In this document: one piece after another, positions 51,059 through 55,909 of the stretch
Position numbering within the stretch: the first letter of the stretch is position 1
Layout of the letters: every line of letters starts with the position of its first letter
NCBI GenBank assembly: GCA_964356325.1
Contig: CAYHHL010000001.1
Location: 57,246 to 121,245, forward strand
Direction of reading: 5' to 3'
Origin: an uncultured Enterobacteriaceae bacterium
GTDB lineage: Bacteria; Myxococcota_A; UBA9042
DNA: 64,000 bases
Notes under the pieces: generated by a model
Database searches by the model: none
Told to the model about the DNA's origin: nothing
What the model saw: only the letters and a program-made list of their open reading frames with translations
Position numbers and translations under genes: made by a program

Positions 51059-52252
51059 CTAGAAGAACAGGTGCAACTGTACCGTGTACTGGGCCGCGGT
51101 GTAGTCGATTGTGCGTACGTAGCGGTATTCCGGGCGTAATTCCACGAACGGAATCGGCATGAACTGAACGCCGGCCACCAACGCGTCAGTCTGAGCGCGT
51201 TTGTCGAGCTGGCGGGCGATGCTCCGTTCGATCCGGCCTTCCAGCGTCAACCACTCGCGGAATGGGTAGGCCGCGATCAGCGTGCCGGTGAAGGTGCGTC
51301 GCCTTGCCAGGTCGGTGCCGGCGCTCGAATGGCTGAATTCGCCAATCACCGAGCCCCAGTAGCTCTTGCCGATGCCCAGGAATACGTCCTCCATGCGGAA
51401 GTCGCCGGCACCGAGCACCGAGCCGCCGAGCAAGCCGTTGACCTGGAAGTCCTCGAGTTGATGCGACAGAGTCAGGCGACCGGACCAGCCGAGCGCGTCG
51501 TCCTTGATGAAGGCGTTACCTACTGAATCCGCAAGATTACGTGGACGAAATGCCGAAATCTCGGCGCTGAGCCAGTGCGTGCCTTCGAAGCCGATCTCCG
51601 CGCCCAGCTCGTTCCAGTAGGGCGCGAGCAACGGCTGCTTGGGCGCCATCGCATTGCTGCGACTCAGGATCGTATGATCGTCGTGGCGCAGTCCCACCGA
51701 GGGCTGCAAAATTCCCGCGCGAACATAGGGCCAACGAATGTCCGGCGCCCAACGCAGCCACGCATCCCAGTGGGTCTGGCCCTGGTAGTGGAAGCGCTGC
51801 TCCGTCAGGTGTTCGCCATACAAGCCGGCGACGTTGAGCTGGGCCTGGGCCGTCACGCTCGGTACCGGCGTGATCGCGATGCCGGGCGAAAGCTGCATCG
51901 GAATCAGCACATGGTCGGGCAGGGCGACCTTGCCGTCCGGTTGGGTGAGGTCGGGCGACTTGCGGGCGAGTTGCAGGCGGGTGTCCGAACCGACCGTGAT
52001 CTTGCCGTCCCAGAAGGTGTTGCTCTCCAACTCGTGCACGGCCTTGAGCCCCAGTTGGTCCCACGTCACGGCGCCCACCGTGTTCATCGAGTACCAGCCG
52101 AGATCGGTGCGCAGCCCGGAACCTTGTGGATTGACGTGGCAATTGGAGCAGCGCGAGCCCGCGGACAAGCTGAACCGGGGCAGCGCGCTCGCCGGCAACG
52201 CCAGGATGCACGACGCCAGAAGTGTAAGCGCCGCGATGGTTTGGCGCCTCAT
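51059..52252 (-). CDS. Cyc2-like fused monoheme cytochrome c / outer-membrane porin.
   Basis: The signal peptide is followed by a single CxxCH (SRCSNCHVNP) about 15 aa after the cleavage site. About 370 aa of alternating beta-strand-like sequence ends in ...QLHLFF. Its start is ATGA-coupled to the Rieske gene. Confidence 0.6.
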   Translation of the reverse strand: MRRQTIAALTLLASCILALPASALPRFSLSAGSRCSNCHVNPQGSGLRTDLGWYSMNTVGAVTWDQLGLKAVHELESNTFWDGKITVGSDTRLQLARKSPDLTQPDGKVALPDHVLIPMQLSPGIAITPVPSVTAQAQLNVAGLYGEHLTEQRFHYQGQTHWDAWLRWAPDIRWPYVRAGILQPSVGLRHDDHTILSRSNAMAPKQPLLAPYWNELGAEIGFEGTHWLSAEISAFRPRNLADSVGNAFIKDDALGWSGRLTLSHQLEDFQVNGLLGGSVLGAGDFRMEDVFLGIGKSYWGSVIGEFSHSSAGTDLARRRTFTGTLIAAYPFREWLTLEGRIERSIARQLDKRAQTDALVAGVQFMPIPFVELRPEYRYVRTIDYTAAQYTVQLHLFF

Positions 52253-52737
52253 GTCTGCACCGACCCCTTGCCCGTCGCCGCGTCGAACGTGACGGCGTAG
52301 GCCTTGAGAGGTTTGTTTTTGGGCGCGGGGCCGTGCTTGACCGAACCGTCCGCGCCGTATTCCGAGAAGTGGCAACCACACACGAGCACGTTCGCGGTCA
52401 GGTCCCACGAGCCTACGCCGCCGTCCAGCTCGGGCGCGAGGTTGCCGCAAGCCGGATCGTGGCTACACGTACTGCTCAACGCCACGATCTGTTTGTCGGA
52501 AACGCGGATGATCACGAACTTGGAGCCACCCGCTTCGGCGCCGACCATGCCGCCAGCCACCTTCAGCGGCGCGAATCTGGCTTGGGCGAGGTCGAATTCG
52601 AACAGCGCGGCGAATACCGGGCCTTGGTGGACTTCGGCGGTTTCGCAGCCCTGCAATGCGGGAGCGAGCGCGACGGCACAGCCCGCGGCACCAAGGCTGC
52701 ACAGGAACTGACGACGGGAAGGTTCGGTTCGGGTCAT
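52249..52737 (-). CDS. Tat-exported Rieske [2Fe-2S] protein.
   Basis: The twin-arginine motif is SRRQFL. The Rieske boxes are CSHDPAC and CGCHFSEY. Confidence 0.75.
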   Translation of the reverse strand: MTRTEPSRRQFLCSLGAAGCAVALAPALQGCETAEVHQGPVFAALFEFDLAQARFAPLKVAGGMVGAEAGGSKFVIIRVSDKQIVALSSTCSHDPACGNLAPELDGGVGSWDLTANVLVCGCHFSEYGADGSVKHGPAPKNKPLKAYAVTFDAATGKGSVQT

Positions 52738-52914
52738 GGCCTTTTCTGGTCGCCGCGACAGGCGGGCACGGCGAAGCTTTGCAGAAGGTTGCGGACGACA
52801 CAAGCCTTGGCGGTATTGGCAATCCGCGACGCAAAACCGCTGTCCGCACAGGGCTTGCCGCTCCGGGCGAGCGCGACTACGCTGCAAGCTCGGCAAAATC
52901 TCAAGGAGGTCCGC

Positions 52915-54927
52915 GTGCTCACCCTACGACTACTGCTCCGGAGTTGGCCCAGCAAATGCCTCGGAATTCTGGTCGCCTCCGCGTCCCTGCTCGCCGCCGT
53001 GCCCGGCCAAGCCGCGGTGCCGAACAGCCTGGCCGTGCAGGGCGCGTTCCAGGCGCAAAGCGGTGGCCCGGCGTCGGACGGTCAGTACGACGTCACCTTT
53101 CGCTTTTTCAAGGCCGAGCAATTCGGCGATCCGCTTTGGACCGAAGGCCCGGTGCAAATCACCGTGAAGAACGGTCTGTTCAGCTATGCACTGGGCACCA
53201 AGACGCCGATCGCGCCGACGACGTTGGCTGGCCTGCCGCAGGTCTGGCTGGGCGTCCAGATTGCCAGCGAGCCGGAAATGCAGCGCAAAGTCCTGCAGTC
53301 CGTGCCATTCACCCTGCGCGCCGGTCTCGCCGAGGGCCTGGACTGCTCGGGTTGCGTGCAGTTGGCGCAGTTGGCCCCAGATGTGCTGGCCGCGTTCGCC
53401 AAGACCGCGGACTTGTCCAAGGCCGCGGTCACCGGTAGTTACAGCGACTTGAAGAACACACCCGACTTGTCGCAATTCGCCAAGGTCAGCAGCCTCGCCA
53501 ATGTCGCCTTCACCGGCAACTGGGCGGATCTCTCCGGCAAACCCTCGTCGGTCAAGGTCGGCTCGGCGTGCGGCAGCGGTTTGGTCGTGGCGGGCATCGC
53601 GGCGGACGGCAGCCTGCAGTGCGTGGCCAACGGTTCGGTCTTGCCGATCGACGGCCTGGACACGATCTCGAACAATCTCCTGACCGTACACTTCGACGAG
53701 ACCGCGGCGGGCAAGGCCTTCCCGATTCCGGACAACGCGCCCAACGGCTTCAGCGACACCCTGGACTTCCCGGACGTCGGCCTGGCGCAGGCGGTCACGG
53801 TCAGCGTCGACTTGACAAATAGCGACTTGTCATCCATCAAGGTGATGCTGACCGACCCGAATGGCGGCACCTACGTTCTGTTCGACAAGGGCCAGAAAGG
53901 CATCGCGCTCAAGGGCTCTTGGCCCGCGCCCAACGCTACGTTGAGCGGCGACCTGGGCATTTGGATCGGCAAAAGCCTCGCTGGCAAATGGAAACTGAAC
54001 GTCACCGACACCGGCTTCCTGAACAACGGCGTCGACGGCCAGTTGAACGCGTGGTCGATCACCATCCGCACGGTTTCTTCGCAAAAGGTCGCTGCCAACG
54101 CGGGGTTCCAGTTCAAGAGCTACGCCAAGCACCCCGTGGTCTGCAACGCCAGCCAGTTGGGTTTCACCTACATCAGCACGACCGACAAGTCCCTGTACAT
54201 CTGCAATGGTACGGACTTCTACCCGCTCGCGTTGGCGGTGGTCGGCAGCCAGAACAGCCCTGGGCTCTCGTGCAAGGACATTCTCGCCAAGGTGCCAGGC
54301 TCCAAGGACGGCGCGTACTGGCTCAATCCCACGGGATCCGGCGCGTTCCAGACTTGGTGCGACATGACCACGGACGGCGGCGGCTGGACCTTGCTGGCCA
54401 AGGTCGACGGCGCCAAGAACACGTTTGCGTTCGACGCGGGGCTGTGGACCGACACCAACCTGCTCAATGCCGACAAGGTCGCGATGGATACGGCCGAGGC
54501 CAAGTACGCAAGCTTCTTTACCTTGCCGTTCACGCAGATGCGCGTCGGCATGGCTGTGGGGCCGACGACCAAGTACGTGGTGATCAACCAGAAGGCGGAT
54601 TCGCTGCGGGCGCTGATGCAGGGCGCCTACGTGGCCACAGGAGTGGGTCGCAACGCATGGAAGTCCTTGATCGGAGGCTCTTCCTTGCAGGCGAACTGCA
54701 ACCTCGAAGGCTTCAATCCGGACTGCGGCGGCCGCAAGGTGCGCATCGGCATCGTCACCAACCAGGAGGGCGACTGCAATTCCTGTGATTCCTACCTGGG
54801 CTTCGGTCACACCGGCCAGGGCGGTTGCGGCGGCGTCGGCGCGGGCTACACCGGCAACATGGCGAGTTGCACCGCGGACAACGGCGACCTGAACATCAAC
54901 AGCGTCGGCTACTTGTTCGCGCGCTGA
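52915..54927 (+). CDS. Secreted protein with a proprotein-convertase P-domain and a C-terminal fibrinogen-related domain.
   Basis: AAGGAGG lies 5 nt upstream of a GTG start and a signal peptide follows. The P-domain-like segment is VSVDLTNSDLSSIKVMLTDPNGGTYVLF...GKWKLNVTDTG...LNAWSITI. The fibrinogen-domain-like segment is CKDILAKVPGSKDGAYWLNPTGSGAFQTWCDMTTDGGGWTLLAKVDG. Confidence 0.65.
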   Translation: MLTLRLLLRSWPSKCLGILVASASLLAAVPGQAAVPNSLAVQGAFQAQSGGPASDGQYDVTFRFFKAEQFGDPLWTEGPVQITVKNGLFSYALGTKTPIAPTTLAGLPQVWLGVQIASEPEMQRKVLQSVPFTLRAGLAEGLDCSGCVQLAQLAPDVLAAFAKTADLSKAAVTGSYSDLKNTPDLSQFAKVSSLANVAFTGNWADLSGKPSSVKVGSACGSGLVVAGIAADGSLQCVANGSVLPIDGLDTISNNLLTVHFDETAAGKAFPIPDNAPNGFSDTLDFPDVGLAQAVTVSVDLTNSDLSSIKVMLTDPNGGTYVLFDKGQKGIALKGSWPAPNATLSGDLGIWIGKSLAGKWKLNVTDTGFLNNGVDGQLNAWSITIRTVSSQKVAANAGFQFKSYAKHPVVCNASQLGFTYISTTDKSLYICNGTDFYPLALAVVGSQNSPGLSCKDILAKVPGSKDGAYWLNPTGSGAFQTWCDMTTDGGGWTLLAKVDGAKNTFAFDAGLWTDTNLLNADKVAMDTAEAKYASFFTLPFTQMRVGMAVGPTTKYVVINQKADSLRALMQGAYVATGVGRNAWKSLIGGSSLQANCNLEGFNPDCGGRKVRIGIVTNQEGDCNSCDSYLGFGHTGQGGCGGVGAGYTGNMASCTADNGDLNINSVGYLFAR

Positions 54928-54955
54928 CGTCCCCAGATCCTCCGGCGCGGCAGGG

Positions 54956-55909
54956 CTACGGCCAGGGTCCGAGCCAGAGGATGTCGTACCAGCCAGGCGC
55001 ATCCTCGTCTTCAGGTGCCTTGCGGTAGTTGGCGAGGATGAAGGCCTTGGCTTGCACGGGCATCACGCACTGTGCGGTGTAGACGTGCCCCCAAGTGACG
55101 ATCGCGATGGCCGACGGCAACTTGGGGTAGGGCGTCAGGACATAGCGAAACGGACCGCTGTCGTCGGGGGCAATGGACTTGGCCAATGCCCGCAGCGCAT
55201 CCACCGTGGTTTTCGGCGCGCAAGGGTTGTACAGGAAGGCTTCAGCGCCGTGCTCGAGGTTGTGCAACCAACGCTGTTGCGGCAGGAAGCTGAACTCGCC
55301 GAATTTCCCCCACATCGGCCGGTGCGGTCCCGACGACGGCGGCAGATCCGCGTAGGTGATCGCCGTCGGCAGGTCGATGTGCTGACCCGGCAGCTGGACC
55401 GGCGCCGTCGTCACGCCATCTACGCAACTGCTTGGTATCCACCCTGGATCCGTGCACGACCAATCGACGCCGATCAGGTCCACGTTGGTCGCTCCGCCGG
55501 GTACGTCCAGCGCTGAAACGTCCGCGTCGCCGACTGCGTCCACCGAACCCGAGCTGTCCGTGCCGCTGCCGGCATCGGGTGCCACTTCGGCCACGTCGCT
55601 GACGTCAGCCACCGCGCCCACGTCCTGCACGACATCCGGGACTGCGCTGATGTCCAGAACGACATCAGGGACTTCCGAAACATCGCTGACCGAGGCTACG
55701 TCTGGCAGGGTCGCCGCGTCGCCGGTGTCGCCATCCGCTGACGAATCCAGGCCAGCCGAGTCCGCCCCGGGCACCACGGCATCACCTGCTGTTTCAGCGA
55801 GTTGCCCATCACCGCTGGCGTCCGCTGAGGGCGCGGCTGCGACGTCCGGAACCTCGCGGGTCGGCGTGCAGGCGGCGAGTGTGAGGAAAGCTAATGACAT
55901 GATACGCAT
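54956..55909 (-). CDS. DUF3105-family lipoprotein with an acidic low-complexity linker.
   Basis: The signal is MRIMSLAFLTLAAC. The linker is rich in D/V/S/A repeats. The conserved C-terminus reads GPHRPMWGKFGEF...NLEHGAEAFLYNPCA...VTWGHVY. Confidence 0.55.
   Translation of the reverse strand: MRIMSLAFLTLAACTPTREVPDVAAAPSADASGDGQLAETAGDAVVPGADSAGLDSSADGDTGDAATLPDVASVSDVSEVPDVVLDISAVPDVVQDVGAVADVSDVAEVAPDAGSGTDSSGSVDAVGDADVSALDVPGGATNVDLIGVDWSCTDPGWIPSSCVDGVTTAPVQLPGQHIDLPTAITYADLPPSSGPHRPMWGKFGEFSFLPQQRWLHNLEHGAEAFLYNPCAPKTTVDALRALAKSIAPDDSGPFRYVLTPYPKLPSAIAIVTWGHVYTAQCVMPVQAKAFILANYRKAPEDEDAPGWYDILWLGPWP

Follow-up and report, generated by a model that had tools for sequence, protein, structure and literature searches.

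A bacterial gene that joins a proprotein-convertase P-domain to a fibrinogen-related domain (FReD), with no protease attached, raises the question of what kind of protein it encodes. Such a gene lies on the + strand of a 64,000-nucleotide stretch of DNA, hereafter the window (contig CAYHHL010000001.1 of assembly GCA_964356325.1, positions 57,246 to 121,245), from an uncultured bacterium that GTDB places in Myxococcota_A. In a preliminary description made from the letters and their open reading frames (ORFs), the product had been taken for a secreted protein with a C-terminal FReD. Our analysis indicates that the 670-residue protein is probably a Sec-exported, disulfide-rich modular lectin or adhesin of a Myxococcota-type bacterium, in which a stalk presents a head of the FReD/intelectin superfamily. 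The gene and the parts of its product are as follows.

52903..52909, + strand: Shine-Dalgarno sequence AAGGAGG, 5 nt before the GTG at 52915, as read from the sequence.
52915..54927, + strand: coding sequence, 670 amino acids plus stop; residue n begins at 52915 + (n - 1) x 3.
52915..53013, + strand: predicted Sec-type signal peptide, residues 1-33, with a basic n-region, the hydrophobic CLGILVASASLLAAV and then GQA/AVP.
53014..53319, + strand: N-terminal beta-sandwich domain, residues ~34-135, five strands in the AlphaFold2 (AF2) model, predicted local distance difference test score (pLDDT) 87-97.
53320..53559, + strand: helical low-confidence spacer, residues ~136-215, pLDDT 40-65.
53560..53688, + strand: conserved Cys hairpin, residues ~216-258 (C219...C236), short strands in the AF2 model.
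53689..54084, + strand: proprotein-convertase-type P-domain (jelly-roll), residues ~259-390, from Pfam and fold, pLDDT 90-98.
54085..54249, + strand: small Cys-bridged beta linker, residues ~391-445 (C410...C430), three short strands in the model.
54250..54396, + strand: FReD A-subdomain, residues ~446-494, SCKDIL...DGAYWLNP...WCDMTTDGGGWTL, with the C453/C482 pair.
54397..54924, + strand: subtype-specific remainder of the head, residues 495-670, covered by no Pfam model.
54742..54807, + strand: most conserved polar loop of the head, R610-G631 (RIGIVTNQEGDCNSCDSYLGFG), a candidate Ca2+/ligand site.

The head is a divergent branch of the FReD superfamily, an assignment that is secure for its A-subdomain. 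The NCBIfam model NF040941 (GGGWT_bact) matched residues 452-494 over positions 1-46 of its 46 (E 5.2e-18, 64.8 bits, cutoff 30). Pfam Fibrinogen_C (PF00147) matched residues 453-502 (E 6.6e-5, 23.3 bits, cutoff 22), over positions 5-55 only of its 221-position profile, and COLFI (PF01410) matched the same region below its cutoff. The signature C-x-x-I...G-x-Y...CDM...GGGWT is present at residues 453-493, its two cysteines C453 and C482 being the same in all or nearly all relatives. Intelectin-1 (4wmq) also matched the A-subdomain, at E 1.3e-8 by sequence and 1.5e-13 with a profile, over residues 448-498 only. The hmmscan check proposed in the preliminary description placed both PF00147 and the P-domain model PF01483 above their gathering scores; the domain matches of the protein are far beyond chance. 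The family is already known. NCBI curates and names it through NF040941, a model that spans 46 residues only, and the gene is therefore a further member of a known, functionally unstudied family. Homologues that align over 90-97% of the length at 41-57% identity, MFZ4578032.1 and MBI5609577.1 among them, share the domain order and carry NCBI names derived from NF040941. Literature searches on bacterial proteins with FReD, GGGWT or intelectin domains turned up no relevant paper and no functional study of members.

For the remaining ~175 residues the assignment is a loose, superfamily-level resemblance of the fold only. The AF2 model of residues 440-670 had a pLDDT of 83 and a predicted template-modelling (TM) score of 0.85, and its best matches among solved structures were all lectin-type domains of the FReD superfamily. 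Intelectin-1, XEEL and the lamprey lectin LSVL were the best PDB matches (E 2e-8 to 3e-7, TM 0.52-0.60, root-mean-square deviation [rmsd] 6.5-8 A). The FReDs of ficolin, fibrinogen, tenascin and angiopoietin matched at TM 0.35-0.52 with a probability of 1.00, with 115-140 residues superposed at rmsd 3-5 A and whole-domain alignments at rmsd 7-10 A. Of the C-terminal FReD announced in the preliminary description, the A-subdomain thus stands, backed by PF00147 and NF040941, while the rest has no Pfam model and no classical FReD motif. Likewise, the fibrinogen-type head stands as a loose superfamily-level likeness in fold, and its best solved relatives are intelectins and not fibrinogen.

Intelectins (4wmq; XEEL 4wmo/5zc0; LSVL 7e1e) are the best solved relatives of the head by both sequence, in the A-subdomain, and fold, and, as in intelectins, the present head has a beta-strand at its very C-terminus. 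The intelectin head is ~280 aa long, compared to ~225 aa here, with no alignable sequence past residue ~500, and the present head sits, unlike intelectins, on a 440-aa bacterial stalk. Intelectins reportedly have a ligand-binding Ca2+ site with the motif N-x-E-H...E...W, in hIntL-1 N260/E262/H263/E274 together with a W288/Y297 box. Intelectin homology of residues 495-670 was not found with a profile against the PDB, with hhalign against the bacterial intelectin protein P0063 (described below) or with profile-profile hhalign against 70 intelectins. A residue-level mapping of the intelectin ligand site onto the head was therefore dropped, as the A-subdomain alone aligned confidently. With classical FReDs (fibrinogen beta/gamma C-domains, ficolins, FIBCD1, tenascin, angiopoietin) the protein has in common the A-subdomain signature, the disulfide pair and a C-terminal globular head; it does not share their collagen-like or coiled-coil stalk.

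Within the head, conservation points to one loop. Over 149 head domains, GGGWTL, K496, G499, F504, W511, K530, W582, Q592, C595, G599, N601, R610, G612, N616, C621, D625-S626, G629 and G631 are 85-100% conserved, and the signature common to the 149 full-length domains reads W511, K530, W582, Q592-x2-C595-N-x-E-G-x-N601, R610-x-G, N616, C621, D625-S626 and G629-x-G631. The members of this set that fall in the loop (R610, G612, N616, C621, D625, S626, G629 and G631) reach 92-100%, the 149 domains coming from 137 representative proteins. Judged by its position relative to the Ca2+ loops generally known from FReDs, the R610-G631 loop is a candidate Ca2+/ligand site.

The stalk that carries the head was modelled over residues 30-445 with a pLDDT of 82.7 as a beta-sandwich, a helical spacer, a Cys hairpin and a jelly-roll. 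It follows a signal peptide that contains no lipobox; the consensus of this peptide across homologues is M-x~24-AxA/AVPxT, and conservation among homologues starts only around residues 21-40. The N-terminal beta-sandwich is confident at residues ~39-116 and averages 44% identity over 67 homologues. It has no Pfam or NCBIfam match, a PDB sequence search with the N-terminal 261 aa returned nothing at E<=5, and Foldseek with the stalk model gave solely P-domain matches and weak jelly-roll noise. Within the spacer lie a CSGC motif and two [G]xYxDLxxxP-type repeats; their number differs among homologues (the homologue P0012 has more), and a weak phrog_17509 match covers residues 117-249 (E 2e-4). 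The best-conserved segment of the stalk is the Cys hairpin (mean identity 0.575), in which C219 and C236 are invariant among homologues. The Cys linker travels with the head, since a single phage protein family, phrog_1325, spans residues 391-640 as one unit. In all, the mature protein contains 14 Cys, that is, seven potential disulfides.

The P/Homo-B segment singled out in the preliminary description proved to be a near-full-profile match to Pfam P_proprotein (PF01483; residues 292-384, profile 2-86 of 86, E 7.8e-9, 36 bits, cutoff 21). Its top Foldseek matches in the PDB were Aeromonas ASP (3wqb/3hjr), Kex2 (1ot5) and furin (1p8j), at E 5e-7 to 1e-5 and over alignments of ~150-190 columns. 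As modelled, the P-domain is of the furin/Kex2/ASP type, and structure prediction, another check that had been proposed, returned this domain together with the fibrinogen/intelectin-superfamily head. In kexin, furin and ASP enzymes a P-domain follows and stabilises the S8 catalytic domain. The present one shares with those of kexin/furin and Aeromonas sobria ASP the full-length Pfam match and the jelly-roll fold but, unlike them, stands alone within the stalk. Pfam gave no Peptidase_S8 match at E<=1 in the protein, and a domain scan of the genes within ~8 kb found no protease domain, in line with what had been described. As no S8 catalytic domain lies N-terminal to the P-domain, the protein is not a convertase. 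It could still assist or regulate a protease of the subtilisin/kexin type, its P-domain acting in trans, or be a degenerate convertase that has lost its catalytic domain. The P-domain is genuine, and homologues bear the JGI name "subtilisin-like proprotein convertase family protein". However, the region before the P-domain is modelled as a beta-sandwich plus repeats and not as a degraded catalytic domain, and Peptidase_S8 is missing not only from the protein and its neighbours but also from ten same-stalk homologues that we scanned and from the precomputed Pfam lists of all 82 homologues. We consider such a protease partner or relic highly improbable.

Comparison with those 82 homologues, the result of a full-length search, separates a conserved stalk from exchangeable heads. 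Homologues with an organism name all come from Myxococcota or from "Deltaproteobacteria" metagenome-assembled genomes (MAGs), and a single-protein genome scan gave 7 Myxococcota-type loci. Besides the JGI name, their products are called "fibrinogen-like YCDxxxxGGGW domain-containing protein" and "proprotein convertase P-domain-containing protein". In 68 of the 82, the stalk (residues 30-390) aligned across ~360 aa with 36-68% identity; the head aligned over >180 aa in 14 only. In 67 homologues, mean identity to the query per 20-aa window was 0.40-0.57 over residues 41-500, except for three windows at 0.34-0.39, and dropped to 0.08-0.19 from residue 501 on, directly after GGGWTLLAKVDG. The A-subdomain (mean identity 0.50) is the conserved junction of stalk and head, and conservation ends at residue ~500. 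P0003 and P0004 have the closest stalks (62-68%), yet an unrelated head past the A-subdomain; P0001 and P0002, whose stalks are 50-53% identical, carry the query-type head at 60-62%.

The heads found on this stalk differ widely. P0012 carries a near-complete classical FReD (PF00147, 5-202 of 221), with the motifs FSTYNNDSSGSC...PWWYGGC, and the head in the window is accordingly a distinct branch. P0055 carries DUF4215 repeats, and several other heads are modules of ~160-400 aa without a family match. In P0043, P0027, P0039, P0040 and P0065 the GGGWT adaptor is missing and the P-domain is followed by beta-rich heads of ~160 aa that match no family. P0038 and P0045 share a Cys-rich head of ~340 aa; a Pfam scan of the P0038 head gave only sub-threshold hints of C-type-lectin folds (UL45, FGE-sulfatase and Xlink, E 0.01-0.1), which we did not count as evidence. 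Because the heads on the same stalk include a classical FReD, an intelectin domain and DUF4215 repeats, we regard them as binding modules. Two of them occur in the same genome: in one MAG of Myxococcota, P0002 and P0012 are separated by 6 kb and have the same stalk but different heads. Their loci (L008/L009, 1-1901 and 8001-10082; MFZ4578026.1 and MFZ4578032.1) encode one classical FReD of the P0012 type and one window-type head (P0002), a pair that suggests local duplication followed by head replacement.

A sharp junction between a conserved N-terminal and a variable C-terminal part, several paralogues with different C-termini in one genome and some alternative heads without a family match would also suit a polymorphic effector or lectin-like bacteriocin, in which the N-terminal part would serve as a scaffold for delivery or receptor binding and the variable C-terminal module would be toxic. 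The fold of the head and the identifiable alternative heads are, however, those of lectin-type binding domains and not of known toxins, and no toxin family was matched in Pfam or NCBIfam. Furthermore, no small immunity-like gene follows, the next gene being a convergent DUF3105 gene 28 bp away, and none was seen in the contexts of homologues. We judge a toxic C-terminal module unlikely.

The clearest case of a recognisable lectin on this stalk is P0063 (locus L012, 518-2863; also L013 and L014), a protein of 781 aa whose stalk is 39% identical over ~360 aa. Its C-terminus is a genuine full-length intelectin, or X-type lectin, domain, which served as positive control for the intelectin comparison: it matched LSVL (7e1e, E 3e-91, over the full 273 aa), XEEL (4wmo, 1e-88) and human intelectin-1 (4wmq, 4e-87), and it keeps the ligand-site region CNSEHACLGGGGWYPE...DWSGYG. 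The best 120 database relatives of this domain are all animal (chordate) intelectins, at ~50% identity. The gene is an intronless ORF that occurs on contigs of three separate assemblies and adjoins a Beta_propel (PF09826) gene. Since intelectins are described as chordate lectins (PMC12800186), the P0063 domain looks like the product of an inter-domain transfer.

The head type of the window is itself widespread. An exhaustive HMMER search with the head against 1.84 billion representatives gave 5970 proteins at E<=1e-3, 1600 at E<=1e-10 and 355 representative clusters at E<=1e-30, and most of the top 150 matches span the whole 231 aa at 35-55% identity. A word-indexed search with residues 495-670 gave 5 matches, the named ones from Myxococcota, a count that reflects the limited sensitivity of the tool, as the exhaustive search found thousands. 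The matching proteins are 200-5000 aa long, some with many copies of the head. N-terminal to it they carry, among other modules, MopE-type repeats, Dicty_CTDC repeats and Ig-like domains, and just the first ~50 head residues are recognised by Pfam. With a curated NCBI model, at least 82 homologues of the same architecture and the 355 head clusters, the preliminary statement that such domains are rare in bacteria was overstated.

The head also occurs in cyanophages. The phrog_1325 match covers linker and head (E 1.3e-24, residues 391-640, profile 35-309 of 334), and this module is annotated "hypothetical protein" in 115 T4-like cyanophage genomes. BFVD models of the proteins from S-CAM8 (A0A1D8KMS1) and P-HM2 (E3SSV2) superpose on the head at TM 0.80-0.81 and rmsd 3.2-3.6 A, with 22-27% identity, and a BFVD "phage tail fiber-like protein" matched at TM 0.62. 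In Synechococcus phage S-RIM2 the linker-plus-head module makes up a protein of ~335 aa (AOO09758.1, locus L011, 5827-6834), whose gene lies in a block of hypothetical genes, three genes downstream of one annotated as a putative tail fibre protein. The phrog_1325 proteins (S-CAM8, P-HM2 and S-RIM2) are the closest relatives of the whole head, Cys linker included; they are ~300-335 aa long, phage-encoded and, unlike the 670-aa protein, without stalk or P-domain. They may be receptor-binding or virion lectin modules of the phage.

These likenesses, the position of the cyanophage gene near a tail fibre gene and the YxDLxxxP-type repeats, which generally resemble fibre repeats, could mean that the window gene encodes a phage-derived receptor-binding protein, the fibre of a prophage tail, a tailocin or another phage-tail-like particle. 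A functional analogy does exist with phage tail fibres that have exchangeable tips, where a conserved proximal part meets exchangeable distal binding domains at a sharp junction. The 670-aa protein, however, is chromosomal, shows no evident association with a particle and begins with a Sec signal peptide, which virion fibres are not known to carry. No phage or tail genes lie within ~8 kb, the composition of the gene is native and homologues occupy unrelated chromosomal contexts. We judge a phage origin of this kind very unlikely.

As a secreted or envelope-associated lectin or adhesin, the protein would work as follows. The stalk consists of the N-terminal beta-sandwich, the variable YxDLxxxP-repeat spacer, the Cys hairpin, the protease-less P-domain, which would act as a structural spacer, and the Cys linker. 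The head would bind a ligand outside the cell. Most plausibly this is a polysaccharide or a glycoconjugate, be it on prey, on other cells or in the matrix that the producer itself makes. The probable binding site would be the conserved loop of acidic and polar residues N616-E618-D620...D625-S626, with Ca2+ as a possible cofactor. The GGGWT A-subdomain of ~45 residues would serve as a fixed adaptor, behind which the ligand-binding part would be exchanged in evolution. What the data show are the gene, the domains and folds of its product, its family membership, the pairing of a constant stalk with varying heads and the lack of a protease. Ligand or glycan binding is suggested by analogy with the fold and the relatives; export beyond the cytoplasm, Ca2+ dependence, oligomeric state and biological target are points that we infer.

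Several observations weigh against this proposal. The TM score of the whole head to solved structures is only 0.45-0.60, and the confident intelectin alignment is limited to the first ~57 head residues. The sequence contains neither the FSTxDxDND Ca2+ loop nor the GGWWYxxC motif of classical FReDs, and the intelectin ligand-site motif NxEH...E...DW is not in the head. The cyanophage proteins that come closest to the head in structure are uncharacterised too. Pfam and NCBIfam scans gave no secretion or anchoring signal other than the Sec signal peptide, so that the protein may end up in the periplasm, at the surface or in the medium. Finally, synteny is not conserved among the homologue contexts examined, and genomic context is uninformative.

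The limits of the gene are well supported. As had been described, AAGGAGG at 52903-52909 precedes the GTG at 52915 by 5 nt; an independent public gene call (P0240) has the same start and a 100% identical product of exactly 670 aa, and homologues align from this start onward. A longer listed ORF begins at 52333 and runs over the divergent Rieske gene; 52333 is not the true start. Other long ORFs in this stretch, antisense or out of frame (e.g., 53830..55002, - strand), were set aside as high-GC artefacts, as homology backs the + frame only. The GC content at third codon positions is 0.866 for the gene and 0.78-0.84 for its neighbours; because the values are similar, recent horizontal acquisition was rejected and the gene is taken as native. 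A scan of 52600-55100 for promoters and terminators found none, and no paralogue of the protein is present in the window.

The genes within ~8 kb encode a twin-arginine-translocated (TAT) Rieske protein, a 397-aa CxxCH protein, YceI, an FG-GAP protein, DUF3105, an ABC exporter, a methyltransferase and an agmatine-deiminase-like protein. The TAT-Rieske gene lies upstream on the - strand, which confirms the divergent arrangement reported earlier. Around P0001 and P0002 the neighbour genes differ from those in the window, and a conserved operon was rejected on this ground. Downstream, the DUF3105 gene (54956-55909, - strand) is convergent, with a 28 bp gap to the stop of the 670-aa gene and no terminator-like hairpin between the two in the terminator scan; its product has a long low-complexity N-terminal region rich in Asp, Ser, Val and Ala (...DVSDVAEVAPDAGSGTDSS...). 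The 397-aa protein is encoded between the TAT-Rieske and YceI genes (51059-52252, - strand) and matched nothing in Pfam or NCBIfam. Its sequence shows a signal peptide and, close to the N-terminus, one CxxCH haem-binding motif (RCSNCH), while its C-terminal ...LHLFF recalls outer-membrane beta-barrels. The Rieske protein, YceI and this protein may make up a small redox module outside the cytoplasm.

In animals, innate immunity relies heavily on FReD and intelectin lectins; FReD lectins are reportedly usually treated as animal inventions, and intelectins as chordate ones (PMC12800186). Two points did not appear in the searchable literature: the organisation into stalk, adaptor and exchangeable head, and how large the radiation of this head is in prokaryotes and phages. 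About three quarters of this bacterial FReD-superfamily domain is without a domain model, and the JGI name "subtilisin-like proprotein convertase family protein" is misleading for the homologues in genome annotation. The family-level pattern and the bacterial intelectin P0063 are more interesting leads than the single gene. Tentatively, and with more doubt than confidence, we suggest that Myxococcota and marine cyanophages maintain a large undescribed radiation of FReD/intelectin-superfamily heads, recombined on a common stalk behind the GGGWT adaptor, which would amount to a programmable secreted recognition repertoire for prey, kin or matrix glycans. If this is true, the "animal" FReD and X-type lectin families would have a substantial prokaryotic and viral history, and the P0063 intelectin domain would mean that FReD-superfamily domains have crossed the boundary between bacteria and animals. 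For the Myxococcota themselves, the combination of stalk, GGGWT adaptor and swappable heads offers a testable hypothesis of how predatory or social members may diversify their surface or secreted recognition proteins.

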